From Marsupella aquatica (lineage: Eukaryota; Plantae; Marchantiophyta), in NCBI GenBank assembly GCA_973895155.1, contig OZ316892.1, positions 15,678,861 to 15,742,860 of the forward strand: DNA of 64,000 nucleotides, written 5' to 3'. Made by a program: the position numbers and the translations under genes. This document shows, piece by piece, positions 12,501 through 62,535 of the stretch. The notes under the pieces were generated by a model. The model was given only the letters and a program-made list of their open reading frames with translations. It made no database searches and was not told the origin of the DNA. How positions within the stretch are numbered: position 1 is the stretch's first letter; each line of letters starts with the position of its first letter.

Positions 12501-13437
12501 TTCCCGGTCAAGGCTCTATTACTGATCGAGATCATGTTTTCAAGATGAGCGTCAAAGGTCCGGGTTCTGGATTGGATATTCTTCAAAGAATGAGAAAAGG
12601 GGGTTCTCAGGAAGGATCATGGGTTAGTTTTGATGTTATGCATCGGATTACTACTGGCTGGCTGACATTTAGTGCGCACGTTTATGATCATAATATCCGT
12701 GCCCTGTGCACAATATTTACTTGTGAGCTAAAGTTTGAATGTTGTGAATCATTGTCTACGGCTTGGAGGTTGATGGTAAGTGTCGCATCCAAAAATGGTT
12801 TGCACGACATTACCATCCATGGTTTCATGGTAGATAATGCCACCGTAGGGTGGAATGCGGTTCAGAATATATTCTCCCAGGGTCTTCCTAATCCAGAAAA
12901 AGAAAGGTCTGATGCTTTTCATTTCTTCCAATCACTCCGGAGACATACCCGTGAAGGTATTTTGGAAAAAAATCACGATGAGCATTATGCTTTATGGGAC
13001 CATTTGAGGAACGCCTCCACATACGTTGAAGCTACAGAATTTCTTCAGAGATCAAGGAGTGGTGGCAATCCAGGAATTGTATTCCAGGGAAACTTCGCTA
13101 TCTGCAAGGATGGATTTCCTGGTGGGTCGTTTGATGGAGACAGTGGGGGAACTATATCAGGCTGGTATGGTCTTAATTCCAACTCAATTTTTCATGGTCG
13201 TCTCATCAAAATATTGCAAGCGATCTTCGCTAACATCGGTGGAATCCGTTACTTACGTTGATTTTGCTTATGTGTTTTGTTTCAGTCGGCGGACGCTCTG
13301 GAATCTGTCCACGCTTCCATGCATGCTTCCCAACCCAAAAAGAAAGTGACTCTAGTGGAGGCTTGCAAAGTTGACTCCAATCGTGCTGCCTTCCAAGTTG
13401 CTTGCTACATCGGATTTGAGTCCGGTGTGAGTAGAGG

Positions 13438-35860: not shown

Positions 35861-38800
35861 CTAGCAAAGTACGCCTTTCCGCCAAGGTATAAATTCTTTC
35901 TTCTCCGCTCCATCTCCTCGTGGAACTTCTTGACGAAGAAGGACGCCCACTTCTTGGGCCGGTAGTTCTCCACCTAGATGACCTGGGCGGCCGATATTTT
36001 GCCTCTGGGTTCCATCATGTGGAGGGCATACCGTTGGAAATCCAGGCGTTTTGCCACTTCTGGGATGAGGCACGTCCTCATCAAGAATCCATTGTCCACT
36101 GCTCCCTTGGTCGGGAAGCTAGAAGACTGGTATTTAGCTCCCTTGCCCCCAAGAGCTCGCAACTCTACCCGGTTTATCCCCTCGGGTAGGCCAAAACTCA
36201 TCTTCAAACGTGCCTCATTGAGACACATCACTCTCCCGTGCGCTCGGGTTTGTTGACGGGCCTCGTCAAAGTTCTGAATGAACTCCATCATATCCTACCT
36301 GTAGTACCTGCTTCCGTTCTAAGGGAGAGAGGCGAGGTGCTCAAACCCTTGGGTCTTTAGATAGCATGCATGCTTGGGGTGGAGGATGTTCTTGTGAACA
36401 TTGTCCCCCATGCGATGCATGGTCAGCTTGGCTACCGCAACCATGGCCAAAGGCAACCCGGATACGGCTGCGGGTTCCTTCCTCTTCCTTCCCCGGGACT
36501 GATTCCCGGGGTGAATGGAAGAGGGGGACACTTCCCCATCCTCCCTATCTGGTGGCGGTAGTGCTACCACCGTGAGTATTGGTGTCGGGGCCGCTAGAGT
36601 CACCGTGTTATCCCCTCAGGCTTGCTGGAGTGGCGCCGGGTTGTTCGGCAACTGTAGAGTCGTACCCCGCGGCCGTCGATTCAGAGGAGGGTGAGCCTCC
36701 TCGTCTTTGGAGCTAATATTCACCGCATTCACCACGGATTGTACTCGGAGAGATGGTGCAACCGGTGGCGGGGATTGGCTCGGTTGAGGCCGAGGGGGTG
36801 TGGGTGCGAGTCCGGGCACTAGCTCGGGTGGGCCAACATCGATCGTTGATGGCATAGTTGCCATGAAGTTCTGCAGGTGCCGGTGGAGGTTTTCCAAAGC
36901 AAGTGTAGACGGCATTGTCGACCAGGTAGTGTCAAACTCGCTATTGATGATAGCCTGGACCCGAGCGGGGATGTGGTCAAAGTGGTGCCGCTATAAGTCG
37001 ATCGTGCCCGGGATAGTGAAGACCGAGTTCGGAAGCCAAAGCAATGCCTCCCAGAAGCTGATGTATTTGCCTCCGTTGAAGAAGTACCCTGATATTTCTT
37101 CGGGTCGGTAAAGCTCACTCTGGGACGGGTAATCAAAGTTAAGGAGATAGTGATGGCAACCTGCTAGGCGGATGGCTCTCTTGTACTCGCGTTCGATCTC
37201 GTATTGTCGCGGGTTGGCGTGTTTTAATGAGTCGGCCAAGTGCAGCCCGATAGACAAGAACTGCGTCCAAAATCGCAAGGCCAAAATAGAAAGGATCATG
37301 TGCGACATTCATGGGAGATAGAAGGCAACTAAGGATGGTCGAGAGGACTGGGATCGTAGCTACCGCGTGGACTGAAGAACTGGTGCACTGCAAAGGATCG
37401 GCCCCCTTTTATACCCTGAGAGCTTGTCGGTCGCCTGACGCCTCCTCATTGCTTATGGGCCGAGCCTTTCACGCTTGCGGTGTACCGGCCACTCCGCCAG
37501 TCCGGGTCAGCATGTGTCAGTGGCCACCTCCCGGAGTTTGTTATACAAACCCGAGGAAGGGGCCCACTACACGCTCACAACCCGGGCGTGCGAATGGTGA
37601 CCCACCACCGGCCCGAACACGAATGCCCCTTATTGACTAATGATTTCCTACTCATAATGGCTACCTAAATACTGTCGTTACTCTAATAATTACAGCCTAA
37701 GATACCCCTAACGCGCGTGCTAAGCATGGTTAGGCCGAATCACTTATTACCCGCCGTACCGGCGGCATCACAACTCTCATCGACATGACACGGTTCTTCT
37801 TACATCCCCTGCTAAGATTGCGTCAAGGAGACAAAATCTAAACTCTACTGAGTTTAGTCCTAATTATACAAGAGGGCCGCCAACATCAATGGATTGGCCC
37901 GAGGGAGCTTCGATACCAGAGGTTGTCAATTTGTCTGAGAGTGAATCGTTTGAGGTCTTTCAGACTCCGCCCAGACGTGTCGCTACTCGTTCAACTCCTA
38001 CTCCTTCCCCTACACCTGTAGTCCCACTACCCGTTGCCGAGTCAAGTGCTCCGTTGACATGCCATGAAGTAAGAGTTCCCCAAGGGAGTTGGTATATAGG
38101 TAGAATGTCTTCCAAAGGGGTCGGCCCAAAGTGTTGTGGGTTTCTTGGTAGGTCTGCAACTCGAGAGGAATGTCAAAATTCTGTGAAAAAAGTATCGTTT
38201 TTGGACCCAAGGGGCCGTGTGGCTATTGCGGTTTTTGCTGCACACAAGATTTTTGGATCAAACGTACCTCGAGTCACTTGGTTCTGTCCAAATAATGTTT
38301 GTTTTCAAGGAAAGCCACGACGTTCCATTGTTTCCTTACCACCAATTCCTGATGTTTTGCCTGTTATGCTAGGGACCAGTCTTGCTAGTGAGGAAATTAT
38401 GTTCCTCATTGAGAAAGGGCTTTCCTTGGATTTAGGCATGCAAACTAATCCCTCTGGAAGAGAACATGTGACAAATGTCTCCCCATCGGTGAGTGCCCCT
38501 TCACCTCTGGAGTTACAAATTAATGTCAGTACATTTTGTGAGATGGTAAACTTGAATGACCCGTTGCATCGATTTTCAAGTCGAAATGGGAAGTCAATTC
38601 AAATGAGGGTCACTCTTTTGTCAGAGCATTTGAAACGCATCAAATCATCAGAGGAGGAGCAGATGCGAGTATTGACAGAGAACATCATCGAGTTGGGAAA
38701 TGGTTGGGGAAAACAATTGTTTGTTGCAACACACGAGACAGATGGAAGGATACCAAAAAGATATTAATTGGGTCCAAGTTTGTTGTTTTCCATCATGCTC

Positions 38801-40573
38801 CTGTGACGATTTCTTCAATCACCATACACGAGGTCTTTCATATGTTCCGTGCAAACATTTATATTGGGTTTTTTGTTATCGATTTAATGTTAGTGTTCGA
38901 GAAGAAATTTATGTCAGCCAACCAGCCCTTAGCTTGTCTGAGGTGAGGTATATTTTGAAGATGTAGGGAAAAGTTGTATTGCATGAAAAATTTGATTTTC
39001 ATGCCTAGCCGAGAATTATATCCAGCTTATTATGAAAGTTTTTTTATCTTTGAATCTATTTTATTGTCCATGAGTGGTTAATGTGTAAAGTTTTTGGAGT
39101 GATCATTGTTGGGGTCTAATATTGTTGGCGTTCTTTGCTAACAATAAGTCTCCCTACAAAACATACCAAATATGAGAGTGTGCCCGGTAATTGATACACT
39201 AAATCATTCGACAATAGTATCTGTTAATATTGCTAGCGAGGATATATTCTTGTTATCCTGGCTTAATTACAATGCTGCAAAGTGAACATATGAGGACAAT
39301 TTATCCCAAAAATTGCACAAATTTTCCTTATACCAGGAGTTTTTTCCTAATAACAGTAAAATTTCTCCTTTTTCCTAACATCGTTAGTATACCCGTTTCA
39401 TTTTTGCATTGTAAAACATTGTAAAACATCATTCAACCTTTTATTTGCGCGATGTTGCATTTTTTGTGACGCATCGCAAGTTTATCTGGCCGGTGGGACA
39501 GTACTATTGTGATGATGCAAGTACATACAAAAGGGACAAGCCAAGGGTGAGCACCATGGGCCAAGCAAGTGAACGGAGCATGTAGGGGGCATTTTGGTTC
39601 CCAATACAATACAAATATATAAAGGCAAAGCGAGTGGAGGGGGGAGTTGTTTTGGCTCCCTTGCACATTGATACACTCGTTAAGTGGGAAGGGGGACTAT
39701 CAGCTCCCTTCTCTTGAGAGCTCTTAATAAGGGGCTTGTGGCTCAAATCATTTAGGAGGGGAGGGGGAAGCACAAGGCTCCCTTCCCTTGGGAGCCTTTA
39801 ATTAAGGCTCATGGCATTGGGAGGGACCAAAGCCCTATGCAAATACAAGCAAGTGTGTGAGAGAAGGCTTGAGGCCCATTAAGGAGGGGGCAAGAGAGGA
39901 GTTTAGATGCTTACTCCTTTTAGGAGAGTTTAAAGCTTTGCCCAAGGCCCTATGCAAGGCTTGTACGGGCCTTTGTGAAGGCTTGTGCCTTTAACTTAGG
40001 CCCACCTGGGCTCTAACAAGTATGGAGGGCATTAAGGGAGGCTCATTGGCCCCAGGTGCTCAAAGGTAGTATGAGGTGAGGAAGGGAGCACAAGCCCAAA
40101 GGTGCAAGGCCCTATGCGCTTTGAGCTAGGGTTGAAACTTGGCAGCCAAGGGTGCAAGCCGTAAGGGCGGTGAGGGTTTAGGCTTTAGGGTTTAAGGTCA
40201 ATGCCCTCTTGGTCCTTTGTATAAATTTTAATTTTAAAACTTTTTCTTGTCATTTGACTTTTGCTTGTGGCTTTTTTCCTTCCAAGTGGATAGGTGTCAT
40301 TTTCTCGTGCCTTCTACTATATTTATTGAATGTACTTTGATTCCCTAGAAAAAAATACTTTCTAGAGAGCTCATTTTTAGCCAAAAATTGCAATTTTGAC
40401 TGTCATTAAGGTAGAAGTTTTTTGCAACACTTTGCAAGAGAAGACTCAAGGGAGTTGAGCAGGGCTAGTAAAATCAATTTGTGCATTGTTGTTGCAGAAT
40501 TTGTAATACAGCCTTTGCCACTACAGAGCCATAATCTACATAGACCATCAATCCTACCAGGGGTCACGAGCAT

Positions 40574-44862: not shown

Positions 44863-46724
44863 ATGGCTCATCAAGTGCGGATTGCCTCCTGGAATGTATG
44901 CGGATTATGCGAGCCAAACAGGAAGACAGTGGTAAAAAATTGGGTGGAAGCGGGGAAAGGATGGATTGACGTACTAGCATTGCAAGAAATTAAGGCTGAT
45001 CGATTCCGTCTGGATATTGCTTTACGTGCTATTTTGCCAGACTACCAACATCTCTCGGCTGAATCTAATGATGGGAGGGGCGGTTTGCCGCTGCTTATCC
45101 ATCCGGAACTGAAAGTAGTTGCTTCTGGGAGGGCTGAGCTAGGAAGAGCGGTATGGGCCCTAGTTTTGTTGGGAGAGATTAAATTTGGAATTGTCAGCAC
45201 ATATGCCCCAAACTCCCCCCGATTAAGGGCCACTCTATGGCACGACCTTAAACTGATGCTTCCACAGGAAAATTGGATTATCTATGGGGATTTCAATATG
45301 ATTGAACTACGCAAGGATTCCACTGGCACTGCACCTTTGATTAAGGGACGTGAAGCAGAATTTTGGAGATTCTTAAAGGTTAGATTTAATCTGGTGGATG
45401 CTTTTGCGATGGCTGGGGTGACCAAGGGCGCTCGTTATACTTGGCGCTATAATCATAGGGATGCCTTGGTTCAATCCTGTTTGGATCGTTTCTATCTAAG
45501 TGAGCAAGGGGAATGGATAGAGGAAGTCAGTGAGTTGTGGCATGATGGAGGTTTGGCATTGTCTGATCACGACCCGGTAGTGTTGATTGTGCGGATAGCA
45601 GTTCTTGAGACAGGGGATAACATAGGGCCAAGAGTGAAACTCTTTAAGGCTAATCCTGAGATTGTAAGATGTAGGAGTAATATGGAGGCACTAGAGAGCG
45701 CATGGGTTACTGGGAGGGGAAATGGCACCGATCCCCTTCTGAATTTTGAGAGAGCAAGTGCGCGTTTACGGAAGGTATATACTACGATCCAAGCTTCACC
45801 TAAGGATCGGGCAATGGATTTGGCAATCTTGCGGAATGAACTACGAGCTCTCAAGTTGTCAATAATAGAGGAACACACAGAGGAGGATTTGAGAGACTAT
45901 GTGGATGCAGAAGATGCATTACACGCAGCAGAATTAGAAGAAGCTCATTGTGGAAGAAGGTTGGCAAGGGTAAAGTGGTTGGGGGAAGGTGACGAGCCAT
46001 TCAAGTTCTATTTTGCCACCACCAGGGCTAAACGTGTGCGAGAGGCCATGGTGCGGTTGGTGGTTGACGGTGGCAAGGAGCTGACAGACCCAGCTCGTAT
46101 CCTTGCTGAGGTGGTTGAATGTTGTGAAGAGCTTTATGCCCCGAGGACTTTACCGGGGACTGACCAGATGGACACCTTAAGGGCGTGCAAGAAGCTTCAT
46201 GCACATACGCAGTACGCACTCACTGCTGCTGAAATTGCTTGACTGGAGGGTCTACCAAATGATAAGGAAATACAAGAGGTGTTATGGATGCTGCCAAGAG
46301 ATAAAGCTCCTGGACCGGATGGCCTAACGGCGGAGGTGTACCGTGCTTGTTGGCACTTCATCCAGGTGGACCTGATCACCATGATGCAAGAGTATTGGCT
46401 TACGGGTAGCTTGCTGCAGGGATCAAAGAAGGAATCATCAAATTCATCCCTAAGAAGCCTGACAAGCGCTTCTTGAGGGACTGGCACCCACTGACTATGC
46501 TGAATACGATTTATAAGCTAATTGCAAAATTTTTGGCTTTATGGTTGAAATTGATTCTGCCTAAACTGATTAGCCCACAGCAAACTGGGTTCATCCCGGG
46601 TCGGAACATCCTTGAGAATATCTCCCTAGCCTAGCTTACTTGTGACTGGGTAAGAAATCGTAAACAGAAATTGTTATTCCTGAAGTTGGACTTTGAGAAG
46701 GCGTTTGATCGTGTGAATCACATG
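44863..46724 (+). pseudogene. LINE ORF2 5' part (AP endonuclease, start of RT)
   Basis: SWNVCGL, LQEIK, YAPN, GDFN, LDRFY, SDHDPV, KAPGPDG, KLDFEKAFDRV. Confidence 0.92.
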
Positions 46725-46789
46725 GAGGCTTTTCACGATGACAGCAAACAGCAATCACATGGAGGCTTTTCACGATGACAGCAAACAGC
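46716..46789 (+). repeat. 37-bp tandem duplication covering the TSD and left TIR tip
   Basis: AATCACATGGAGGCTTTTCACGATGACAGCAAACAGC twice. Confidence 0.9.
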
Positions 46790-47340
46790 AAACAATAAAG
46801 CTCATAGCAGCAAATGTCTGCACCAAAAAAATCTTCCCTAATCCGACATCTCTCGTAAAATGAGATCGAAACCTCTAAAATCCATCATTTTGAAACACAT
46901 CGTAATACTAGCGCCCAACGCTATAGTCCTAAAACAGTCCAAAATACCCGAAACCTCATTCAAAACATCTATTTGCAAAAGTATCCCCAAAAACATATGT
47001 ATACTAGTGCCCGACGCTAGTATACAGACCTCAATAACAGACTTAAAAACAGAGATCAACTAAAGACCATCAGATGCCAATTGATGAAACATTGGGAAAG
47101 GGGGAAGTCATATTCTAATATCACCAAATTGTAATACATCCCAAGTTAAGATTGTCCGCTTCACAGAGGAAAGTTTAGTCAAAAAACAATGTGGACAGTC
47201 CGTCTCGCTTTATAAACACCCATCAATATTACATGTGTTCACAATAGTGCCAAGCGCTATTTTGTAAAATAGCCAATATCTATATCCCCAAAATATATTT
47301 TTAAAGTCTGGCTAGCCATCACATTTTGAATCAGTCGAAT

Positions 47341-50300
47341 CTAGTTCTGATTCTTCTTTATACTTTGTGATCTATCAATAGACTCAGCTTCGTCGTCTAC
47401 ATACTTGCTCGGGACGATGTCATCAACATAGCGATTCTTCATAAACTTTCTATCAGAGCCCCTTTTGAGCCTCAGGCCTTTGCTTTCCCAAGTCAGCATT
47501 CTCACAGAATCTGCTTTTCGAGCCACCTTTTCTGCATAAGAAGGCAAGACAAACGGCTTCTCCGGGGTTTCTATTGCATTCCTTGCGACTTTCCTCCGTA
47601 GTTGAAAGCGCTTCTGGAGATTCCACTCAGACCTGGAAAGTTGAATCCGATATCTTTAGTCGGGTCCGGGAAAATGGTGGAATGTTGGAGACACTAACGT
47701 CACACTTCAAAAGAAAAAAAAGACAGGGAAGCTGAAGATCATTACTCAAAAGACTCTTCACTATCCTCAGATTCAGAAGACCCAAGGTTCACCACTTTCT
47801 TGGAGGCCCCACCATCTTTGGACTGTTGCGTACCATCGCCTCCATCATTGTCCTCATCAAAATCAAAATTAAGCACAGCACGGGGTCTGTCCTGCTTCTT
47901 ACTCCCCACCTGCCGGTGCGGAGGCGTGGACGTGGAGGTCTCATTATTCTTGAGAAGTCCAAAGAAAACTTTTGTGGCAGTGTCAAGAAACTCTTTACGA
48001 TTTTCAATCCCGACTACAAACCTCCCACAATGATCTCCAGCAACAAATGTACTTCCGGCCCCAACAGTCCAGTCCATGACAATATCCCCAGGGAGGGTAA
48101 TTAATTCTAAAACGGATTGCATGAAACCCACAGGCAGCCTTGAATTCCCGGCGAACGCAAGCTCCGGCAGAGGATCATTTTTTGGCACGGGAAAACCAAT
48201 GAGATTGGTTATTGAAGGATCCTCTGTATGTGAAAGAGGCCGAAATTTGGGATCCTTAGGGACCCTACCTTTGGACGAAACACGCCCAAAAACATTGAGA
48301 GTGAGCGTAAAAATTTGCACATCGAATAACGTTTTGTTCATAATAAACATCAGATGCTACGTTGAGAATACGGAAACATTTCACGAAGAGGATATTCCAC
48401 ACTAGCGCCTGGTGCTAGCGTCGCCGTCAATCTCCAAAGGAGGACACCAAACAGAAACTTTGGAATAGCGTCAGGCGCTACTATACATACCTGCATATCC
48501 GAGCGAGGCCTGTACATTGGAGTGCCCATGACAACATTGTGTGTCGAGATACATTGGAATTTCTGTGAATCTTGACAAGGTGCAATGACCTCGGAAACTT
48601 GGTCATAGTCGCCTCTATGCAAAATTGCTAGCAATCCATCATCTGCTAGGAAAGGATCCATTGTTCTGAAAAAGGCACTTGGAATCGTATAATCTTGAAG
48701 GTTCCATTTAGGAACCTTCCTATCCACAAGTATTGGTTTCAACCTAGTCGGAAGATATATGAAACCAGCATCAACTCCAAAAGCTCTTTCTTTTCCCCCT
48801 CGGACAACCCCTTTTGCTCGATCCCTAGACTTCACCAGATCTTTCCCCCAACCTTCAATATTAGAAACCCAGTCCGGCTTTTCTCCCTTGTTAAACAGGG
48901 AATCAAAACATTCTGTAACACTCGACTCCACAAAACAATGTCGAGTACACTTTTGTTTGAAATTCCCCACATCTCTTTGCAATCCAGTAGACGCAACTGA
49001 ATCTCGGGACGAAGATCCGAGCCTATCCTCAAGTGTTCCTCTCTTTTTCTTCTTCTTTGTACTTGTCGCGTCCACTGGAACCACTGCCTTTCCACTCTCC
49101 CCAGGGGTTCCCTGATCTGGTGTATTTTCCGCACCAGTGTTAGCTTCAGAGGCCTGAGGAGTAGCATCCTCTTTTACATCACTGGTAGCATCCAACTTCC
49201 TTCCCCCTGAAAGACGGAGAGACATTACTCAATGGAACTAGTTCTCATAATAGCGCTCGGTGCTAGTATCAATTGGGGGAAAATACGTCAAACAAACAAG
49301 AGCGGGAATACTTTACTGAATCCTAAGAGGCAAACTTACGTTTTTTAAGCGATCGAGTTGATTCACTGGGAGCTGCAGATTCATTCTTGGCCTTCACTCT
49401 TGGCTTTCGGCTCCGGTCAACATGCACGACGACTGTCTCGCATTTCTTCTGCAGTTCAGTTGTCAAAGCGTCCACTTCAATCGCAAGACCCTACTTCATC
49501 TCTGATATGTACCTTGCTGGGATTTGCGACTTCTGTAACTTCATGAAAGCGTCTTTCTCCACCTCGTCGAAAGGCAGATCCCATTTGCCAGTGTCAAGAT
49601 ACCATGGGCAGTGGAGTCTCTCCCACTCTGACAAGGCGTGAGGTGGGAACTTTCCCTCAGCTGGGTACATCAAATACAGATCAAGAAGGTGGTCACCATC
49701 TTTGATAATCACCCACTTTTGAAATGCACCAGGGTAAGCCCACAAAACCTCAGGAGATCGCAACTCCATCCACATGTAGAAACGGTAAAGTATCGCTTGG
49801 CTCGTTTCCGGTTCCGCTCAGTGTAGTCCTCCTTGTCTGCATACTTTGATGGCCACATTATGTTGAAAAATTTAGCCTTGACAAGGTCTCCAAATGATTT
49901 GAATTCTTCGATAATGGACTTCATGAGAACATCCAGGGACTCACAACCAGACTTGACAAGACGATCATCTGGCATGCGATCCAAAACCTGCTCGAGCGAG
50001 GTGAGGATCAATCCAGTAGCAATTTCCTCCATTGAATTCCATATATGCCAGGTATGGCACCATTGTTTTACAGGATCGTTGTTCACACTAGCCAGATGAA
50101 AGAACTGTTTCCGAATCTCCGGAGTGCAATGGGCAACGAGAAGGGTACACCTTAACTTTGGATCCAGATAAGTAACTGCAATAAACAGACGAGCACGGTC
50201 CATAGTGCAAACAACTGTATCGGGCTTTTTTTCTCTTTTGTTCTTCTCTGTGATGGGAAACATTTTGGCACATGTAGCCAAGTAGTCACCAAAATCAGGG

Positions 50301-51506
50301 TGCAGCAATGGAGTGATCTTTGTTACTTTGATAGCCTAGTCTTTTGTCGCTTCCTTCATCATAGCTTCATGCCTCTTCTGCGTCTCCTCTTCGGACCACG
50401 GAGTCCCCTGGGCGGCTGCAAAATCCATGTCCACTTTGAACTGGTTTGTGTAAGATTTAATCTTGTTCTCACACAAAATGTAGATGAGCACGTCTTGTGG
50501 CATCTTGTGTGTATACCAAGAACCCTTTCGAGTCTTCTTTCGAATGGCTTCAAACTTAGCATAACTCGTAGCATCAATTAGGGGTTTGTAGTGCTCTAGG
50601 TCACGGGATAAAAGACGAGAGATCAAGAATCCAAGACGGCTCGACCACAACTTGTCCCAACCTACGTCAAAATTTAAATGTAAATTAGCAGAGCCGGGCG
50701 CTAGTAAAACACCAAAGATAATATCACATCCAAAATCCATCTTGAACTAGTACGTCATATTAAATGAGGTTGTCCTGAGGAATGGCTTACTGGTTGACAA
50801 CGTGCATGGCAGCCTCGAGCTCCACGAGGGAACCTTTATCTCCATTGAAAACAATGCAAGTCACACGAGGGTGGTACTTAATGTTGTCCGGATGCTCTAC
50901 TGTCACAATCGACCACGAATACAAATGGTGATTTCCATCAAAGACACAAAACATCTTGTCCTTCAAAACTCTGAAATCAGGATCAGCGTCACACTCTTCT
51001 TCGAACTTGTCATTCTCGGCAACCCAGATTGGGTCCCAAGAGGCTCTAATCTCATTAGTGCAAATCTGTGGAACCCCATCCGCATTCGTTGGCTGTACGT
51101 AAAATGGCATGCCCATGCGCGAATTGTATCCAAAAATCCGGAATGACTCCTTCAATTTGTCGATGGAGGCGCTCTGCTTTTGCAATGTCCGCACCACTTC
51201 CATATGAATCAATCAACATAGAGGAATTTGTGGAGGCTCCTTCTCCAATCCTTTGAAATCTTTCCCAAAGGACAAGACATGCTTGGAAATGTAATCGTCC
51301 ATTGAAAGTCCAGCAACACCGAAATCAACTCGAGCAACTTCCTCAGTCGTGTCCATTCTCCCCCTTCTTGATCGCGCAGTCGGAAGAGTTGAGCCAATGT
51401 CTGAATGTGAATAAGACGCAGCGGACCGAGTCACGCGATGGGTGTACACAGAACCTGAAAAAGAGGACTGTGAGGACTCAGAATGACCGGCATGACTATC
51501 TCCCAT
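47341..51506 (-). pseudogene. MULE-2 accessory gene: ParB/Srx-like plus beta-class methyltransferase-like, multi-exon, disrupted
   Basis: VRTLQ..IDKLKESF...GY..PFYV and VFDGNHH (50925-50939); GVDAGFIYLP (48741-48778); LADDGLLAILH; RLPVGFMQSVLELITLPGDIVMDWTVGAGSTFVAGDHCGRFVVGIE (~48005-48140). Introns near 50662-50790, 49207-49339 and 48317-48490. Confidence 0.78.
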
Positions 51507-53717
51507 CCTCGTATTACCCCACTAAGAGATGGCGATGGCGTTGAGCAGAATGTTGGACAGTATCGTACAACTCTCCCAGAGCCCCTGATCCAGTACGGAG
51601 CAACAGGCTCAGGTATAGAATGTCACGCTTGAACAGGCTGCTCCAGGAGAATCACGTCTCTCCCACGAGCGCCAAGCCTCCTCAGAAGGTTAAGACATGG
51701 AGTATCGAGCACATTAGAGTGTTGCTCAACGGTAACACCAACAGATCTCAACACTTGGAAGATTACCGTTGGACCAGAAACCGTCTTATGTGACCAGCAA
51801 TCCTCAAGGTTACGCGTGACTAGCAATCCTCAGTGTTATCGTTAAAATATGACCGTTGATCGTTTTGGCCTTATTGATAGCGCCAAGCGCTAGCAAAAAC
51901 AACTCCATTTTACCTGATTTAAACTACTAATTTCAATAGCGCCGAGCGCTAACAAATCTTCCACGTATATATATTTTACACAATTCAAATGGAATTCATG
52001 GATAGATGGACAAAATGGACATTATTAGGATCATTTTATCCGTAAGCGTTATTAGCGCTCGGCGCTATCATAAATTGCATCCAAATCAATGTTACTCATC
52101 ACGAGAGAGTAATACAAACTCTTACATATCCACAAATATTTAAGAATCCATCTGGTATTAGAAGCATAAGTTTGAGCATTCCAATGCTAGCGCCGAGCGC
52201 TAATATGGAACCTGTCACGGGTAATACCACTCCATCAAAAACTACAAGCATTACGAAGACTTTCAAAAGACATTTGGTGAAAAGATTTACTCACTTCCGT
52301 AAGGCAAAACATCAAAAAACACAAACTGAATAATGAAAAATGCGTAAGGGAATGGCTAATAGATCAAACTCCATTTAATGGTATGGGCTTTACTTCACAA
52401 AGTCTCAAAATATTGAGTAAAAACATGAGAGTAACCTCCCAATAGATTCCGAGACTATCGTGCTGGCAAAAGATTGACTACCATTTCTAACATCACTACA
52501 TCAACTGGTCGTGGCTGTCAACATCAAACTCCACCAAATGAGGTTGGTAATCTACTCAGGACTACTGGGTTCTCCAGGATCAGACGGTCCATGCGTTAAT
52601 CTCCAGGATCAGTTGATCAGTTAATCTTCCCACCAGCTTGGCTTGTACGCGTCCGAATCATCGTTGGAATCGCTAGAACCAACGCCCCAGCGAAACCCAC
52701 CCCAACTGCAAAAGGAGTTGTCGTTGGACCCCGACTCGTCGTGGGTCCCTGCATCATCGTCTGTATCCTCGCCTTCACTTGAAGAACTTTTTCCATGTCT
52801 AGGTGACGGGTGCGACGAAGATAAGCCCGCCTTTGACACCCGACATTTCTACGCGATGGGTGCGGATACAACTCGGGTTTTTGCAATTACTTTCCCCTTC
52901 GCCGAGATTGGGACGTTTGAATGAGAAGGAGGCTTCGTGAGAGACTTCTCCTCAGCGCCCTCTCCATCGCTGCCGCTTTGAAATGTAACCTGCGCCTTCC
53001 CCTTAGCTCGTGGTGGAGCCATGGAAACTTAAACAAACGACTCTAAATGATTGAGACTGAACGGAAGTTTCTCGTATAAAAATGGACGCGGGAGCGCAAA
53101 AAATGTTTTTGAGAACAAAGAACTTCAAATGGTGAGAGGCAGACTCGTCGGCCAGGTTTTGAGGACAGAGGTGAGAACGTTTGGATTTCCATGGACATCT
53201 CAGATGTAATGGTTTTTGATCGTGCAATTGACGTCCGAGATGCGTCAATTGTGGAAACTTTAATGCCCACGTGCGTACTTGGACCGATTCACGGATTTCC
53301 TGTCTGTTGTTAGAGGTAGAACATACGAGCTTTGATGATAGCGCCGAGCGCTATTATTATGATCTGAGTTTTCCTGTCCTCCTCGCCATGCGGTACTATA
53401 TTCGGTCGAGAGTCATGCTTCCATTGTAAAGTTGTTCCCCGTTCACAAAAGTAGCGCCCGACGCTATTAAACTCCCGACAATTAAGCTGGTTCAATACAG
53501 CCGTTGAATAACGACAAAATTCAATTGATTTACATTGTCCAAACCATTAACGTAACTTTCTTTGTAATTATTCAACGTTCGTTTATACTGTCGTTATTAA
53601 CCTCGTACATCAAACAATCCTTAAACCGATTGGGGAAGTGAGACATTGATTATTATCTTCCGCTGAAATGGGACGATCGATCGTAGTGAGACGCAAGGAC
53701 ATGCGGGATGTTGTCAC

Positions 53718-56700
53718 TGTGGTGCGTCCCATGGCTCCCTAAACCCAAGAAACCCCCCAGCTCAAGCCGATTCCCGCAGGTTTCGCGCTCGGCGAGGCCG
53801 TTTCCGCGGCTTAGCGGCATGGGACGCTGCTAACCTTCTACTACTACTATTAACATTTTACACACATATACTGGACAGATCCTTCATCGGGTCATGAGAT
53901 ACGTAGCCGGCCTAATCTAGGCCTTCCCCTGTCTTCCCCTCCGTCTTGTTAGGTATGTTTGGATTCCGCCGCCGGAATGATCCCCAATAGGCTTGGTTAA
54001 GCCGCTAAGACCTCTCTCAGCTCGACACATCCAAATCTCACTCCCCTGCTTACTTTCCTTCCTTTTGGTTGATGTGGGCACTCTTCACACAAGTTAATGC
54101 GACACACAAATAGCAAAATGACTCATTCTGACTGAGTCATACCATGCACTTGCCATACAAACAGTACATCTCATACACAAGTTCTGCGAACTAAGCTGTG
54201 AGGCCAACTCTATTCAGCTCTTAGGCATGAGGAAACATGAATATACACAAGGATCACTGTATGACTAACCGAGAGCTTCTCGTACTACTTGATCCCAGCC
54301 CGGCTGGTGCAAACTAAAAACTTGCTAAAGAAGAGGCCCTGAGCTCCCCGCTGCCCAGGTACTTATCCTGGTAGTGGATCCGCCATTCTTTGCATCGTAA
54401 GCCTAATCTACTTAACAGTAATCTACTTTCCGGAATCTACCTATGTACAGCAAGGCAGGAGCACAAGTGTTGCTCCTACCAGTGGGACCGCAATCCCACT
54501 AAGCTAAGTGTCAGGGCCGCTCCTGGTCCTGATCCTAATCCTAAACTTGGAGATCAGCGCGCGCCCTGCCCACTCACGCCTCCTCCCTCCACGTCCGCCC
54601 TCCCTAAAAGGAACGGCGCCCTTGCACCGTCACGACACCGGTGGTGGATCCTTAATGGACGCCCCCAACGCTTCCTCCTCAGCCACTGCCGTAGGCTCAT
54701 TCTCTGACAGATTACCTGCCCTTGACTGAGTCAACTCTCCATCGGCCTGACTGGGTCCACCATCGGCGTCGGCATCGGCTCGGGAATCGGTTACGGCCTC
54801 AGCCTCGGCTACGGTCTCCCCGGCCTGCTCAAGAGGCGGATCTGGAATACCGGCCTCATTACTGAGTAGTTCGGCTTGGGCCGCACCACCCCCACCTGTG
54901 ATGATAGCGGGATCTATTGCCGTATTCATGCCGGAGGATGGTGCTGGTTCTACCTCCTTGGTCACCACGGCTTGTGGAGTCGGATTACTCCTTGACCCTG
55001 AAGGTTTCCGCTTTTTCTTCTTTTCTGGTTCGGCAGCTGGTCCCTTCCCCTTCCCACTTACTTCCGGCACTGGTGCAGTTGGCGCGGCTTTTTCGGCCAG
55101 TACCACTCCTGGTAACTTGGTTGCCCCAATTGGAGTTGGGCCTGATGAAGACAAGCACTTAAATACTGCGGCTTGTTTCTTCAGCCGCTCCGTTTGGTTG
55201 TCGGCCCGCCGCTGGAGGTTCTCCATCTTCCTCGTGATTTCCTCCAACTCCTCCTGGGTCTCATCCAGGTCCTTGTGTGCCTCCTCTAGTTCCTTCTGGG
55301 CTTCCTCCCGTTCTTGTTTCAAGGTAGTCCTCTCCTCCTGGGTTGCTCTTAGCTCCTTGTCGAGCTCTGCAATGATGACAGACTCCATCTAGTTCATCTT
55401 GGCGTAAGTCTGTTCGAGCATCTCGTCCTTCTCCCTTAGGTCGGCCTTGAAGCTGGCCGTCAGGGACGCAAGCTCCTGCTGCAGCGCCATAATCCCTTGA
55501 TAGGATTTTCCTAACTCGGCCTCCTTCTGCTCAAGGGCTCCGCGGATTTTCTCGAGCTCCCCCTTCAACGCCCATTCCTTTCTTTGGGTCTCCGCCATGG
55601 CCCGGCTGTTGGCTGTTATGTGGGCCTCCTCTGTATTCTTCAGCTCTTGCTTCCACTTCTCCCTCTCTTTGATCGTGTCGGCCAACTCTCCCTGCGTCTG
55701 AGTCAGTTTATCCTTGATATTCTGATTATCAGCCTGCGCGGTGTCCAACTGCCCCAGCATGATGTTCAGCTCATGTCGTTTAATCCGCAGTTCATCTTGG
55801 GCTTTCTTGGCCGCCCTTAGATCTTCAATCTCGGCTTCCATCCTCCTAAGCCGCCGAATGACCTCGTCCTTCTTGCTTCTCTCTAAAGCCACCGCTTCTT
55901 CTAATTGGTGCTTCTCCAACTGCTCCCTATGGAAAAAGGGTCCTACCTCCAACTCCTCTCCAAAGATGCCGAGCGCAAGTTCCCCACACATCTCACCATA
56001 CTCCATGGCTCTATTCTTAGCGTAGGTGGAGTAAGTAGAAGTGATCGGCATCGCCCATCGCGGCCTCTGCTCCCAAGCCGTCTTGCGGATCTCTTCAATC
56101 GTGGCTAGAGGTTTGCTTCCTTTTTTGGCTAGCCGCCTGATGTCCTTCGGCCAATCTCCTCCTGGTAAATCCTTTTCCCTAGCAAGGGCTGCCTCCTCTT
56201 CCTGCTTGATTCGCTCCTGAAATTCCTGCACCGTCTGTTTTATGCCGTCGAAGCTCGGGGGAGCAACATCTGGTGGGGGAGACTCAGGGCTACTCTACTG
56301 GTTGGGGTCCCCTCGCACTACCCTTGGAAGTGTGGGGACAAACCGGCCACAGGTCCTTACTCCTGGGACGTGATGGTCCGACCCATAGCCGGAATTATCA
56401 TGGCTGCAGTCCTCCACTGCCTCCTCTACTTCTTGGCCGTCCGGCTTCTCCCTCTCCTCTTCGTCGGTAGGAGCTTCAGGCAATTCTGCCTCAGATTCGG
56501 AGCTTGAGATTCCCACATACATTCGAACACCTAGCTTGGATTCAGGCCTGATTCTCTCCTTGTCTCCAGCAAAGGGGTTTTCTCTTGTGAGCCGGTGTAG
56601 GCCTACCTCTGTAGTAGTGTCCTGCATTGTTGCTGTTGCCGTTGTTGTTGCCGATGCCGATTTCTTTTCTTTCTCCAGTAGTTTCAGCAGACACTGCATG

Positions 56701-58378
56701 CCTGGTTGCTGCATCGGCAAGTCCTCCTTCCTGGGCCTAAACACCTGCTCGATCGTAGGGCTAACAGGTGGTTGAGGCTTCTCAGCCAACGGCCTCGGCG
56801 TTGGAGCTTCCTTGGGTGCCCTTACCTGTAGGGGAAGTACCGGGGCAAAAGTCTGACCTCTGGCATACCGGCACAACAGCGGCATGTGATAGCCAAGCCG
56901 CGACACGCTCCCCATGCCGATTACCTGCTGCTCCTCCTTTAAGATCTTCTTCAATTGGTTGAGAAGGTACCCGTTGTAGTCCCGGCTTGGGTCTGGCCTT
57001 TCTGCCAGATAGACCTGTGCCTTGCCGATCTCTGCCCTTGGCAAGTTACAATGCATGGTCACCCGCAAGAAGTCGATCATCTCTCCTATGTGCGGGTTGG
57101 TGCAGGTGTTCCGGAAGAAGCCATTCTTCGTTGATGGCCCGGGGAACGACCGGAACTCCTTGTCAGGCAAAGTCTTCCTGGTATCAACTTTGGTCTTATT
57201 GCCTATCGGCAAGCCAAACACTTTGGCAATTACCTTGGGAGTAAGATAGAAATCCTTCCCATATATCCTCGTGCAATTGGTCTCGGGTTCCCATGACCCC
57301 ACGAATTCTAATAGGTCTGACTCCGGTACCTCCGGCTTCAGCCATGGTAATCTTACAAAGGCCTCTAAGCCGGATCCGGCCATGAAGCCTTGGTACTTCT
57401 TGGTCTGCATGGCCGTGAAGCATGCATCCTCCTCCCGTGCAAAATGTAGTTGCACCTCCACCGGTAGGGTTGCCGCCCAGCCCTTCCAGGTGTCATCCCT
57501 GGTTGGAATGGCCTTGATGGGATTGACCTCCTCCTCTTCGGCTTCTCCCTGCCTCCTGCTCTGCTGCTCGGTTGGCTTCTTTGGTGCCGCCGACCTCGTT
57601 CTTTTTGCCGGGGTGGCTTCATCGTTGACGGCTCCCTTCCTCTTCATCTCTACTGCCGTGGAGGTTTCTCCTAGCACCGTTGCCTGGGTCCACCTTTCCG
57701 TGCTACCCTTTAATTCCCAGTGTATGTCGTTGCAGTTCTTGATGGCCTCTCGGATGCCGACGACACTGTCTTTGCAAAATAGAAGATCGTCGAGTTGATT
57801 GGAAGTAGGCGTCCACAGGAACTCGTCCTTGATGAGTTCGCCTCCTAAGAAATCCGTCTTCTGCAGCTCCCACAATCGAGCGAGCTCCTGCCGTTCTCGA
57901 GCTGCCCTTTCTGATTCCTCGTCCTCGTAAGTCTTGATGTACTCAGTTGCCCATTCGAATAGGCATCCCCAGAAATGTGTCGCTTGATTGACGTTGCTCA
58001 TACCCTCCTTAGGTCGATCGTCGGTATCTACTCTCTCCCCGAGTGCTTTGCTTAAGCAGCTGACAGTAGTTGGCCTCCCGTAGTCGTCTGCCTAGTTCGT
58101 GCTCGCAAATGAGCCACCATCTCCTGCAAGCGCTCCTTACCCCTCTCCTCTGCCGGTCCTTCTTCCCGTTGATCCTTCCTAGCCGCCGACGCTTAACGTG
58201 CCCTAACCCTAATCGAGTTTTCACCCTCAGCGTCCTTACCTCCGGCCTCGGCCCGGGTTCCATGGTTGCCCCTAATGGTTTATATTTTCCTTGTTTTGTC
58301 CCTATACTAAGGTGTTCCTAGGGTGCCTTCCTGCTTTACCCACTTAACTGGCCGAGTGATTCCTGTCTAGGCATCACA
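53718..58378 (-). mobile_element. Giant solo LTR, copy C4 (4661 bp)
   Basis: Reverse complement of a C3-like LTR; TSD GTCAC (53713-53717, 58379-58383). Confidence 0.93.
54630..58263 (-). pseudogene. LTR-encoded protein, long variant, disrupted
   Basis: Frameshift near 58048 and TAG stops at 56295 and 55389 relative to the 1206-aa copy. Confidence 0.85.
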
Positions 58379-60117
58379 GTCACGGTTATCGTATCCCCTG
58401 AATCTCAGTCAAGGAGAGTTTTGGATGAATACTTGGGGTTGAGATTTGATGTTTCCAAAGAGTGTATTCTCTCTGTGTCCCTCCTCCCTAAGGATTCAAA
58501 GGCAAATACCATCTTCTATGATGTCGTCGATGGACTCAGTGGACGATGTATCCAGAGAAAGTATACGAGGTCTTTGTTTTGGAAGATTCTGAAGCATCGG
58601 AAGATCTATGTCCTATTACCGGTGGTGTTGATGTTGTCAATCTGTCTGACACTTTGGAAGACGACGGGAAGAATTCGCCCCTTTCCTTTGATGTCCCGAA
58701 AAGGATCTCAATGGATCCCTTGGTGGTGAAGATGGAGGTTCAAGATGTCCCAATTGTATATCGACAAAGTGCGATGGATACTATCCTAAAATCGAAGGGA
58801 CATAGCGAGTTATCTCGTTTCATCAGGGAGAAGGATTTCACGCATCAGATAGTTCCTAGCCTCCCGATGACATACAATGGGAATGTTGTGTTTGAGTTGC
58901 CTCCAGTCGATTGCGTGAATTCGAAAGGGGAACGACTGAAGGACATGGACCGCGGGAAGGATTGCTATTACTGGACGCGCATTGTCAAGACATCTTTGAA
59001 TGTTTTACCAAAGAAGATGTGGGATTTTGGAAAGGTTCAGTGTACCGGTTCTCTTGAATGTCGGAACAATTCTTGCCAATTCTGGAGAGACAAAAAGACT
59101 AGGAACAACCAAGTCTGGGCGAGATCACCAAAACTCTCAGGAACCTTTCGAGTTGGAGAACTCATACCTCAAGGTGGTATTGTCTGTCACCACTGCTCTG
59201 AACCTCCGATGTGTACAAGATCGTGTCCGGCCATGATGTTCTATATGTATCCTTCGGCCAAAGTGGATTCAACTCATTTGGCGTATATGTCCCGGCTGGC
59301 TGTGCACATGGGATTTCACAACCATCCCAATCGTTGAGGGTGGTCAAGAGAGGCTGAAAAGCTTGCTAAGACTCACCTTGCAAAGGAGTTCTAGGCTAAT
59401 CCACAAGCTACGCCCGCTGGGATAAAGAATGCGGCTACAGACTCTCTAACCAATGCCCTCTGTGAGGAATCCGTGGAGGAAATGTCTTCGGAAGAGGAGA
59501 AGGAGATCTGGGAGTCCCTCATGGTTGTTGCTACCCCACAAAAGTTTGCTTCTGTTCTGCGAAGTGTGAGACAAGATCAGAAAGGCAAAGGTGAGCTTGA
59601 ATATTTGGTGCGGATGCAAAAGTGTGTGAGACTTCCCTTTCTTCATAGGTATTTGCTTCCAGGCCAAGGATGTCGAGACGAAAGTGCTCACATCTTCAAG
59701 ATGATTGTGAAAGGCGAAGGATCTGGGATCGACTTTCTCCAGAAAATGCAGACCGGTGGTTCATTAGAAGGTCATGGGTGAGTTTCAACGTCATGCATAG
59801 CATTACATTGGACTGGCTAACTTTTAGTGTTCATGTATATGATCATCACTATCGGGCGCTTTGTACAATTTTCACTTATGAATTAAAGGCTGAAGACCTT
59901 AGAGAGAGCGTGGCGATTGATGATAGAAGTTGCGAGTGAAAATGGCCTGGAGAACATTCAAATTCGAGGATTCATGGCGGACAATGCCCAGGCTGGATGG
60001 AATGTGGTGCGAAATGTTTTCTTCAATGGGGTACCTGATCCTGACCGAGAGCGATCAGATGCGTTTCATTTTTATCAGTCATTTCGTTGGCATTCATGCG
60101 AAGGTGTTCCAGAAGGA

Positions 60118-60145
60118 AAACCCGAAACCCTAAACCCTAAACCCT
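60118..60145 (-). repeat. Interstitial plant telomeric repeat, about four TTTAGGG units
   Basis: Plus strand AAACCCG AAACCCT AAACCCT AAACCCT. Confidence 0.8.
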
Positions 60146-62535
60146 GTAACGCAAAAACATTTTTGGACGCATATCGTATGTCAAGAGAGATCGACGATTG
60201 GTGGAGATCTGGAAATTGCCATCAGGGGAAGCTTCAAATGTTGCAAGGATGACTCTCATGGTGGGTCGTCCGTTGGAGACAATGGGGAAACTTCATTAGG
60301 CTGGTAAGGCTTTTCTTAGATTCATGATAGTCCATTACCATTGATTTGTAATAGCGCCCGACGCTAATATGGAACAATTCCTTGTTACAGTATAGTAGCG
60401 CCAAGCGCTAGTATGAACAAGCACACTTTTGCAACTACAAACATGGTAGTGATGCAAGAGATTTGATAGCGCCAGGCGCTACTTATATATTAGAGAGTCC
60501 ATATTGCATAAATACAAACTACACTTGTCGCAAATTACTGTAGTTACTAAATTTCGTTTCCGATGACAGAGCAAGAGTGCTGAGGAGGCAGGTATGATTC
60601 CGAATTGTACTGGTTTGGAATCGGTCCATGCAGGCATGAAGGCGTGGCAAATGAAGAAGCGGGTTGGTCTCATGGAGGGGTGCAAAACTGACCAAAACCG
60701 AGTCGTATGTTAGATAGCAGCATATACTACATACGGTCAAGGATTACATCGGGGAAGTGGACCCACTATCTTTGAGTTGGCTTTCAGATCTGCCGACATG
60801 ACAGGGTCTCCACGTCTATTTGAAGAAGCGACCAATCTCCTTCTTTCCAACGCAGCTGAATTTGATTTGGAAAGAACTGTTCCATTGAATGGAGACGTGA
60901 TAACTCGATCGGTGAAGCGAAAAGGTAATGCAAGTGGGAATGTCTCGGCACAAGACTCTCACAGGCATGATACTATCCTTGTGACTTCACCAAATACAAG
61001 GGGTTTGAAGAGAAGAAACCTCCATTCCACAGACTTCGAGAAGATGTCTTCCACACCTTCTGCTGGTGGAAGTGGCGTTGTTAATTTGTCTCAAAGTGAG
61101 AGTGAAGATTCTGAGGAGGTCATCGTCCTTGAGACACCCTCACGTTAGACGACAAGATCTTCTGTTCCTCCCATAGGACATCAAGCTGAGGCCGCACCTG
61201 AGGAATCTCTTCTCCCAATGGAAACTGACATAGCTCCAAGTCTCTGGCAGCTCCGACAAACTGCAAAAAGTGGTGCTGGTCCAGCTTGTAATGGGACCCT
61301 CGGTTGGAGAGGAAGCCGCAATGAATGTCAAAATTGAGTAAAGAAGGTTGGGTTTCCAAATCCAGAAGGAGTTGTCGCAATATCTGTAAGAGGATGTAGA
61401 CTTTTTAGAGGAGAACCTCATCCGGACCAGATATGGTTTTGCCCAAACAACAAATGTCACAAAAGTCGGCCAAGAAGAGGTGTTTCAAACATTCCCAATA
61501 TACCATCCGTTCTTCCCATTGCGAGAGGGACCAATCTCCAGGAGGGCGAGATCCAATTCTTGAGAGAACAAGGTCTACTTGGTACAGGAGAGGTAAGGGA
61601 AGGTCAGGAGCCATCCCCGTATGAGTTACGCATCGATGTGAATTTGTTCCAAGAGAGGATCAATTTAGCGGACCCAATTTTCAAATGTGGCTCCAGGAAT
61701 GGAAGGAAGTGCTTGCAGAGAGTGAATCTAACTCAAACACATTACAAGAAGATTGAAGCATCCAAAACAGAAGTAATGAGGCTCGTATGCGAGAGAGATG
61801 TCATGAGTGGGAATGCGTGGGGCAAGTAGTATTGTATCAGAACACATGAACATGAGAGGAATGCTGCCTCTTATTGGGTGCAAATTTGTTGTTTCCCTTG
61901 CTGTTCATGTGAGGATTTCTATCGGAGGCACATTTATAGGAAACCTTACATGCCTTGCAAACATCTATATTGGGTATTCAGGACTATGTTAAAGTTGAGT
62001 CTTCACGATTCGACACTATCTAGTCAACCAGTTCTGACATTGGGCGAAGTCCGTTACCTGCTTGATTGACAAAATGGAACGGACACGTAGTCAATTCGGT
62101 GCCGTTCAACAGCTTTAAGTGGCATTTGTCTTTTCTAACGAGCAGAAGATGTACCCGTTTCTTATCTAGAAAAATGTGTGGTCTGTTGCTAGCACTTGGT
62201 GCTAGCCAAAATTTGAAACAGATAGCAAATATATTGACTGTTAAATAAAGCGTGTCTTCTTATAATGACCTTTATATTGCCCGTTTATTATCATTGAATG
62301 GTGGGCCCCATTATGTTAGCATTTCAGAGAGCGCTTATATGGTTGTTATTTTTTAACATTGAGCCATTTTTTTGAACTTTGAATAACCTATAAAACTTGT
62401 ACAAGTAAATAGTTTCTCGTATGAGTAAACAGATTTTCTGCTATGAGTAATTGAAAGCCTCATATGAGTAAATTTTTGCTCGTAACAGCAAATCTATTTA
62501 CTATTTGCTGTCACGGTGGTTATACCCATCACATG

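Follow-up and report, generated by a model that had tools for sequence, protein, structure and literature searches.

The VANDAL transposons of Arabidopsis, with their VANC proteins, carry family-specific short motifs in intronic, intergenic and terminal non-coding DNA, and anti-silencing has been shown for this system (PMC5735166). The Ectocarpus element Sola1-1_Ec32 has an accessory gene of ~1,100-1,200 amino acids, on the strand opposite its transposase, that combines a ParB-like domain with an N4C/N6A methyltransferase, and it has been suggested that the product binds, and modifies, the element encoding it (PMC12477816). In red-algal Plavaka (EnSpm) elements with PAG3/PAG2, tandem arrays of inverted repeats lie beside a ParB-like gene and have been proposed as its sites; homologs are present in Mutator elements of Chondrus (10.1101/2025.02.11.637652). 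Here we describe two Mutator-like elements (MULEs), MULE-1 and MULE-2, from the liverwort Marsupella aquatica, in which dispersed palindromes accompany an accessory gene with a ParB-like and a methyltransferase-like part. Both lie within a stretch of 64,000 nucleotides (contig OZ316892.1 of assembly GCA_973895155.1, positions 15,678,861 to 15,742,860, forward strand), referred to below as the window and numbered from its first base.

The exact word TAGCGC-N3-GCGCTA occurs seven times in the window, a number reached by none of 100 shuffled sequences. With one mismatch allowed there are 14 copies, every one inside MULE-2 (46909-60481), where chance gives a mean of 0.01; with two mismatches there are 20 (chance mean 0.93), made up of 17 in MULE-2 and three elsewhere, at 10017 in MULE-1 and at 18007 and 26480 in the nest of long terminal repeat (LTR) insertions that interrupts it. 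An earlier note, made from the letters of this DNA, had counted at least 16 copies in MULE-2, a figure that stands for copies with one or two mismatches (14 and 17) and falls for the exact word (7). The sites are spaced at ~0.65 kb, and the widest gap is ~2.2 kb once the nested LTR-type insertion is removed.

The MULE-2 site is about 23 bp long and reads WTRN-TAGCGCC-N-GGCGCTA-NYAW. All 34 half-sites have C or T at position 7, which makes the arms 7 bp long and leaves a single central base free. Outside the 15-mer by which copies were selected, position -4 is W in 32 of the 34 half-sites (p 7e-6), position -3 is T in 24 (p 1e-6) and position -2 is R in 33 (p 2e-9; half-sites treated as independent), with position -1 unconstrained. 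Spacers and flanks had been described as variable, which these constraints contradict; only beyond 4 nt out does mean flank identity (0.31) resemble that of random non-coding pairs (0.30). At 48471, the sole motif position among the 40 shown of ~1,800 differences from public sequencing contigs, all contigs of the three covering runs carry C, restoring a perfect palindrome. No lone half-site of at least 8 bits is present inside MULE-2; a single one was found away from both elements, at 41947. Constant spacing, one unconstrained base within an otherwise conserved half-site and unrelated surroundings together form what appears to be the signature of protein recognition and, with the lack of lone half-sites in MULE-2, are consistent with the dimer-binding site that had been suggested. 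The cis site is real, family-specific and more sharply defined than at first reading.

MULE-1, as the earlier note implied in speaking of each MULE, has palindromes too, in a version of its own (TTGN-TAGCGA-N3-TCGCTA-NCAA; eight copies). Six match TAGCGA-N3-TCGCTA within one mismatch (chance mean 0.11), and two weaker sites start at 5343 (two mismatches) and 39126 (matrix score 18.8); T at -3 and G at -2 are found in 14 of 14 half-sites. The two families share a TRN-TAGCG core and differ at inner position 6, which is C or T in all 34 MULE-2 half-sites and A in all 14 from MULE-1. When each is left out in turn, the 17 MULE-2 sites score 17.0-32.0 bits with their own matrix, whose highest score at a non-site in the window is 7.7 bits; the same matrix gives MULE-1 sites -7 to 12 bits. 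A host transcription factor bound at the sites and exploited by the elements could in principle read the common core, but the clean family difference at position 6, the low cross scores and the absence of either version at one mismatch or fewer from the other ~43 kb of the window make this very improbable. A NAC-type host palindrome was also considered and dropped, as its spacing does not fit.

Related DNA was found at six metagenome loci, five of them 1.2-3.1 kb long, none of which holds a whole element; searches of viral and prokaryotic collections returned no related DNA with either gene. Two of these loci (L002, with two sites, and L003, with one; 37-38% identical) carry CTCGGCGA-N3 (GGCGA-N3) palindromes of the same geometry in accessory intron 1, after the ParB exon, and share with MULE-1 the W-T at -4/-3 and the GCGA. 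The sites occupy L002:880-1004 and L003:740-770, with the L002 pair inside a duplicated unit of ~94 bp; L001 stops just within the intron.

All 17 MULE-2 sites are non-coding, as are 38% of possible starts (binomial p 7e-8), the coding spans having been drawn from tblastn/tblastx homology and GT-AG borders once the sites were known. Three are left subterminal, four fall in three accessory introns, six are intergenic, three lie in the transposase intron and one is right subterminal; the possible fourth accessory intron (47642-47744) has none. The earlier confinement to subterminal, intronic and intergenic DNA was thereby borne out, as was the absence of copies, at two mismatches or fewer, from the nested LTR-type insertion (53718-58378) and the flanking long interspersed nuclear element (LINE). 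MULE-1 repeats the pattern (8/8 non-coding, p 2e-4), with sites in accessory introns 2 and 3, between the genes, in both subtermini and in the same transposase intron as in MULE-2, and none in accessory intron 1.

That the copies are RNA hairpins, DNA cruciforms or neutral leftovers of small duplications seems scarcely credible. Two of seven introns do fold better than shuffled sequences (z -2.7 and -4.2), the L002 pair sits in a short duplicated unit, and one MULE-2 pair has a flank identity (0.575) that exceeds the 95th percentile of random pairs (0.525). The two stable folds, however, are neighbouring copies pairing with each other, and the remaining five introns are ordinary. The sequence itself is kept, beyond what pairing would demand: when the seven MULE-2 sites in introns are read on the transcribed strand, five of their six arm changes break a pair, one makes a wobble and none is compensatory. 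An RNA hairpin, a known RNA family and a tandem repeat were separately ruled out by the folding comparison with shuffles, by the lack of an Rfam match and by a tandem-repeat scan in which no array covered any site, the last in agreement with the earlier note.

The first exon of the accessory gene, encoding the ParB-like part, has 204 related proteins at E<=0.001 in a full HMMER search; a word-index search with the same exon gave no matches. The named relatives belong to a liverwort, Riccia sorocarpa, and to a fern, Adiantum nelumboides. The fern protein (P0081) has the same ParB-like plus methyltransferase-like layout, with the motif IV Asp kept, so this type of gene is not restricted to liverworts. 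Across 150 aligned segments from the top matches, two repetitive matches having been dropped, an Arg is conserved in 66 of 70, D/E-G-N-H-R has its Gly in 133 of 142 and its final Arg in 110 of 140, and an Asn is present in 98 of 98. The motif reads DGNHR in most relatives and DGNHH (R to H) in MULE-2. The nucleotide motif of ParB is GERRxRA (PMC7333895), and on a putative mapping of residues the conserved Arg, G-N-H-R and Asn would fit the ParB nucleotide pocket.

Structure prediction was carried out for a full-length Riccia homolog, P0026, whose model has a mean predicted local distance difference test score of 57.5 and values mostly of 75-98 over residues 131-560. Residues 146-516 align with 198 of the 199 residues of ParB 6sdk (Z 8.9, root-mean-square deviation (rmsd) 3.9). 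On realignment, the top 10 of 50 structures are all ParB, Noc or KorB (Z 8.2-9.1), followed by one at 6.3, and in a wide structure search KorB ranks first of 48,161 chains (Z 8.1, 182 residues), although Z values of this size are middling for helical folds. The match to the N-terminal and DNA-binding domains of ParB is whole-length (rmsd 3.9-4.1), but it concerns a helical region, with Z 8-9 and identity of at most 12%, and was obtained with the full-length model only. The predicted fold of the homolog thus extends over the nucleotide-binding domain of ParB/Noc/KorB and, less certainly, over its DNA-binding domain; together with the DGNHR-type motif, it points to an N-terminal ParB/Srx domain with an Arg-rich motif. 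No C-terminal dimerisation domain was identified in the P0026 model. The comparison of the palindromes with parS, drawn in the earlier note, gains from this two-domain match and is weakened by the lack, in both elements, of any gene resembling ParA; "parS-like" serves only as an analogy.

By language-model features, the nearest named clusters to P0026 residues 140-520 and window 50787-51212 (minus strand) are fungal DUF3723 (PF12520) clusters (0.97; 193 of 256 shared). This suggests, as a lead only, that DUF3723 is a related ParB-like transposon protein; the accessory protein has no Pfam HMM match to it. In fungi DUF3723 is Starship cargo (10.1101/2021.12.13.472469).

The C-terminal part of the accessory protein matches PF01555 (E 1.3e-7) and is CcrM-like (E 1.4e-4). 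It has the beta-class order, with motif IV ahead of motif I, and the S-adenosylmethionine-binding motif is recognisable in MULE-2; by sequence profile it has no relative in the PDB, and this half of the model is of low confidence, with no clear fold match. The catalytic motif of beta-class N4C/N6A methyltransferases is (D/N/S)PP(Y/F/W). Its place is taken by YLPT or YLPI in the window elements and in the relative P0167, and by D(L/M/F/V)PxG in six other relatives; DPPY or SPPY is present in no relative examined. Since the two MULEs share with a 66%-identical relative a Tyr (YLP) where motif IV usually has Asp, the loss of Asp is a family trait and not decay. An active element-encoded N4C/N6A methyltransferase, with the palindrome as its recognition or modification site and the ParB part as its loader, would accord with the profile matches, with the recognisable cofactor motif, with the Asp retained by some relatives (DLPTG, DMPSG, DFPIG, DVPFG) and with the occurrence of N4-methylcytosine in a liverwort (10.1101/2021.02.12.428880); given the altered catalytic motif it is quite improbable.

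The second candidate binder is the transposase. The model of its homolog P0156 has the ISCth4 transposase as top Foldseek match (E 4.6e-4), as expected of a Mutator/IS256-type DDE enzyme, and the D...D...DxxH pattern is present in the transposase alignment, although there was no Pfam MULE match and no PDB relative by sequence profile. The C-terminal Cys/His pattern of the MULE-2 transposase, which we take to be a SWIM finger, yielded no profile match. At its N-terminus the P0156 model resembles a GCM domain (1odh; Foldseek probability 0.99, Z 6.3) and a WRKY domain (Z 5.7). The model also contains, over residues 3-84 and 122-378, an N-terminal CIDE-like small domain (Z 5.5) beside the GCM-like domain; the family lacks a Pfam match and could represent a MULE clade not yet described, with a link to the origin of GCM.

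The internal sites may therefore belong to this GCM/WRKY-like domain, for autoregulation or self-activation, with the accessory protein doing something else, which would extend self-regulation by a transposase from the ends of an element to its introns; we consider it unlikely, though it is the chief rival and has evidence in its favour. All four termini carry an inward RTG-N-YAG at base 14 that resembles the outer part of the half-site and is given 4.6-6.8 bits by the half-site matrix of MULE-1, whose 99.5th percentile is 3.9, and three lone perfect half-sites lie within 170 bp of the ends of MULE-1. In the case of AtMu1, the transposase by itself is enough to activate cognate copies and lower their methylation (10.64898/2026.08.24.746577), and WRKY-GCM1 domains have been proposed as regulators of their own elements (PMC1702500). 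Contrary evidence is that the terminal word goes on to AAA, whereas A at positions 6 and 7 is found in 0 of 34 MULE-2 half-sites; the four termini are homologous, so they amount to about one observation. The reported AtMu1 transposase peaks fall on the terminal inverted repeats of its own copies and not on introns (10.64898/2026.08.24.746577), whereas here the nearest palindromes are 147-322 bp from the ends. A ParB-like gene is associated with inverted repeats also outside the Mutator superfamily (10.1101/2025.02.11.637652).

The reading that we think probable, if not strongly so, is that the palindromes serve as docking sites, each bound by a dimer of the ParB-like accessory protein that the element itself encodes; in this way a family would tag its own copies in trans. 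An accessory dimer would read two half-sites about one helical turn apart; binding of cytidine triphosphate (CTP) would then close the clamp, which might slide a short way, the frequent sites offsetting nucleosome roadblocks. The methyltransferase-like domain, with Tyr for Asp, would probably serve as a binding or shielding module and not as an enzyme, and the net effect would most likely be a VANC-like escape from silencing, a KorB-like autorepression being the alternative. Each of these four steps is put forward with less assurance than the one before it. A bolder version, which we hold to be rather doubtful, is that land-plant transposons run a nuclear CTP clamp of bacterial type, in which a ParB-pseudomethylase loads at the 23-bp family palindromes that occupy nearly all long introns and gaps, slides and shields the element from host methylation, site and protein diverging together and independently of VANC. 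Confirmation of the docking proposal would reveal a CTPase clamp with sequence specificity at work on eukaryotic chromatin, as well as another self-addressing route for plant transposons besides VANC. Two sister families, with two different 23-bp candidate sites each beside its own protein, make the proposal directly testable by specificity swap.

Several observations sit uneasily with docking of the accessory protein. At 23 bp, the site exceeds the OB operator (16 bp) in length. A phage ParB activator is reported to function without its nucleoside triphosphate residues (PMC13229309), which leaves the clamp step uncertain. P0026, the source of the predicted fold, is only 21-36% identical to the pieces in the window; Foldseek with its model gave nothing at E<=0.001 (the first six matches being Noc and ParB), and a sequence profile of the ParB domain found no ParB relative in the PDB. 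The transposase too has a predicted sequence-specific domain, with the weak inward half-site at the four termini, and the lone half-sites of MULE-1 lie near its ends. The likeness of the L002 and L003 sites to those of MULE-1 is weak, being matched by 4 of 60 shuffles, and L004-L006 (AT-rich; L005 and L006 overlap) show no such site. Among half-site deviations in MULE-2, 21 of 23 are C>T or G>A, six at the 68 CpG cytosines and 15 at the 68 inner cytosines, so the sites have probably been methylated at times. Retention of CpG gives no clear relation to the sites. The observed/expected ratio is 0.90-0.92 up to 300 bp from them, falls to 0.76 at greater distances and stands at 0.61-0.69 in coding DNA; CG/(CG+TG+CA) shows the opposite trend, with 0.17 near and 0.24 far.

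The two elements share the same two divergent (head-to-head) genes, 30-78% identical in translated segments, with no long alignment between their non-coding DNA. Their 8-bp and 9-bp target-site duplications (TSDs) and short imperfect terminal inverted repeats agree with the 8-11-bp TSD of MULEs (PMC6446971). The MULE-2 TSD, ATCACATG, is found at 46717-46724 and 62528-62535, and the insertion site is a LINE reverse-transcriptase gene. Both families have asymmetric ends (GRGGCTTTT left, GGGTATA right), with RTG-N-YAG-N-AAA common to all four. At 46716-46791 the left TSD copy and the first 29 bases of MULE-2 are tandemly duplicated (period 37, 100% identical, second start 46762), perhaps as a scar of aborted excision or repair. 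The MULE-2 subtermini (62400-62527) contain repeated AGCAAA and CTCATA words, which are possible transposase sites, and between the MULE-2 genes a decayed low-complexity frame on the minus strand (52400-53025), basic then acidic, starting MAPPRAKGK and free of palindromes, could be either a third gene or a 5' exon.

Stops and frameshifts have accumulated in both elements, and the window copies are dead; in the preferred reading they would be targets and not sources. Contigs from public sequencing runs, one of which may derive from the window's own source, indicate a multi-copy family, with 2,198 and 2,723 records in the two main runs that are <90% to >99% alike. LTR insertions interrupt MULE-1 at ~13437-37775, and the LTR nested in MULE-2 is 98% like copies in that nest. 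This LTR-type family (13437-37775, 53718-58378) consists of repeats of ~4.6 kb, each holding an open reading frame of 1,000-1,200 amino acids with no significant Pfam match; of four copies, ~98% alike, two flank a pol gene and two are apparently solo with 5-bp duplications. Coordinates are collected in the table.

Table. Features of the window, with the two elements, their genes and their palindromes.
Feature	Position	Strand	Remarks
MULE-2	46725-62527	.	Mutator-like DNA transposon; short imperfect terminal inverted repeats GAGGCTTTT... / ...TATACCC
MULE-2 accessory gene	47419-51506	-	stops and frameshifts; ParB-like, helical DNA-binding-like, low-complexity linker and beta-class amino-methyltransferase-like parts; introns ~50662-50790, 49210-49340, 48330-48492, possibly 47642-47744
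Nested LTR-type insertion in MULE-2	53718-58378	-	TG...CA; 5-bp TSD GTCAC; 4.66 kb; no palindromes
MULE-2 transposase gene	58522-62063	+	broken; GCM/WRKY-like domain, Mutator/IS256-type DDE core; intron ~60307-60569
MULE-2 palindrome	46909-46923	.	left subterminal
MULE-2 palindrome	47005-47019	.	left subterminal
MULE-2 palindrome	47245-47259	.	3' of accessory gene (downstream)
MULE-2 palindrome	48403-48417	.	accessory intron 3
MULE-2 palindrome	48466-48480	.	accessory intron 3; perfect with C at 48471, as in other family copies
MULE-2 palindrome	49251-49265	.	accessory intron 2
MULE-2 palindrome	50689-50703	.	accessory intron 1; two mismatches
MULE-2 palindrome	51878-51892	.	intergenic; exact
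MULE-2 palindrome	51937-51951	.	intergenic; exact
MULE-2 palindrome	52053-52067	.	intergenic; exact
MULE-2 palindrome	52188-52202	.	intergenic; exact
MULE-2 palindrome	53339-53353	.	intergenic; exact
MULE-2 palindrome	53452-53466	.	intergenic
MULE-2 palindrome	60352-60366	.	transposase intron
MULE-2 palindrome	60396-60410	.	transposase intron; exact
MULE-2 palindrome	60467-60481	.	transposase intron; exact 7-1-7
MULE-2 palindrome	62190-62204	.	right subterminal; two mismatches
MULE-1	5182-39394	.	sister element; ends GGGGCTTTT... / ...TATACCC; 9-bp TSD GTTTCATTT
MULE-1 accessory gene	5696-9414	-	broken, DGNHR intact; 30-50% identical to that of MULE-2
MULE-1 transposase gene	11464-38957 (11464-13436 and 37776-38957)	+	
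MULE-1 palindrome	5343-5357	.	left subterminal; TAGCGA type, two mismatches
MULE-1 palindrome	6613-6627	.	accessory intron 3
MULE-1 palindrome	7418-7432	.	accessory intron 2
MULE-1 palindrome	10017-10031	.	intergenic; exact
MULE-1 palindrome	10139-10153	.	intergenic
MULE-1 palindrome	10240-10254	.	intergenic
MULE-1 palindrome	13218-13232	.	transposase intron, matching that of the 60352-60481 cluster
MULE-1 palindrome	39126-39140	.	right subterminal; degenerate
Two lone perfect MULE-1 half-sites	5235-5264	+	direct repeat, 20 bp apart; near left end
Third lone perfect MULE-1 half-site	39230-39239		near right end

Among bacterial systems, the likeness to ParB-parS, Noc-NBS and KorB-OB lies in the predicted two-domain fold of the homolog, the Arg-rich nucleotide motif and the palindromic site (PMC7333895, PMC11790492). 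KorB is in addition encoded by a mobile element and regulates that element from a distance, and its operator core, TTTAGCGGCTAAA, shares TAGC...GCTA with the MULE word, possibly by chance (PMC11790492). The MULE proteins differ in their low identity (at most 12%), longer site, long helical insertion, fused methyltransferase-like domain and setting in eukaryotic chromatin, and no ParA or KorA partner was seen in either element.

With VANC/VANDAL the MULEs have in common a Mutator-type element, an accessory gene and family-specific non-coding motifs, here for two families in one window. The VANC motifs, however, are 8-9 bp long, non-palindromic and amplified in tandem (PMC5735166), and tandem amplification is not a feature of the present sites, only L002 having a duplicated unit. 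Neither Pfam nor structure searches found a VANC-like domain in the accessory protein, the domains found being of other kinds. Anti-silencing is established for VANC; for the MULE proteins it is a proposal, made by analogy.

Sola1-1_Ec32 resembles the MULEs in its ParB-like and methyltransferase domains and in their position antisense to the transposase, but it comes from a brown alga and the Sola superfamily, and the accessible part of its description names no binding site (PMC12477816); here the element is a Mutator of a land plant, with family-specific sites and the motif IV Asp replaced. The Plavaka elements likewise combine a transposon-borne ParB-like gene with inverted repeats, and their cassette includes a methylase gene of the PF01555 type. 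They differ in that the repeats are tandem beside PAG3, ParB is fused to a 2-oxoglutarate oxygenase, the methylase is a separate gene and the transposase is of another kind (10.1101/2025.02.11.637652), whereas the MULE sites are dispersed singly over introns, intergenic DNA and ends, with unrelated flanks. ParB-HTH methylase fusions are mentioned in chlorophytes and chytrids, though not in the MULE arrangement in the part of that account available (PMC4738411). The literature searched contained no land-plant example of such an element or site; Iyer et al. 2011, to which the Ectocarpus study refers for similar proteins (PMC12477816), and the Bostrychia supplement may bear on novelty. Accessory genes joining ParB and methyltransferase domains, and inverted repeats near ParB-like genes, have thus already been described in algal transposons, and what is new here is their occurrence in a land plant with sharply defined, family-specific sites.

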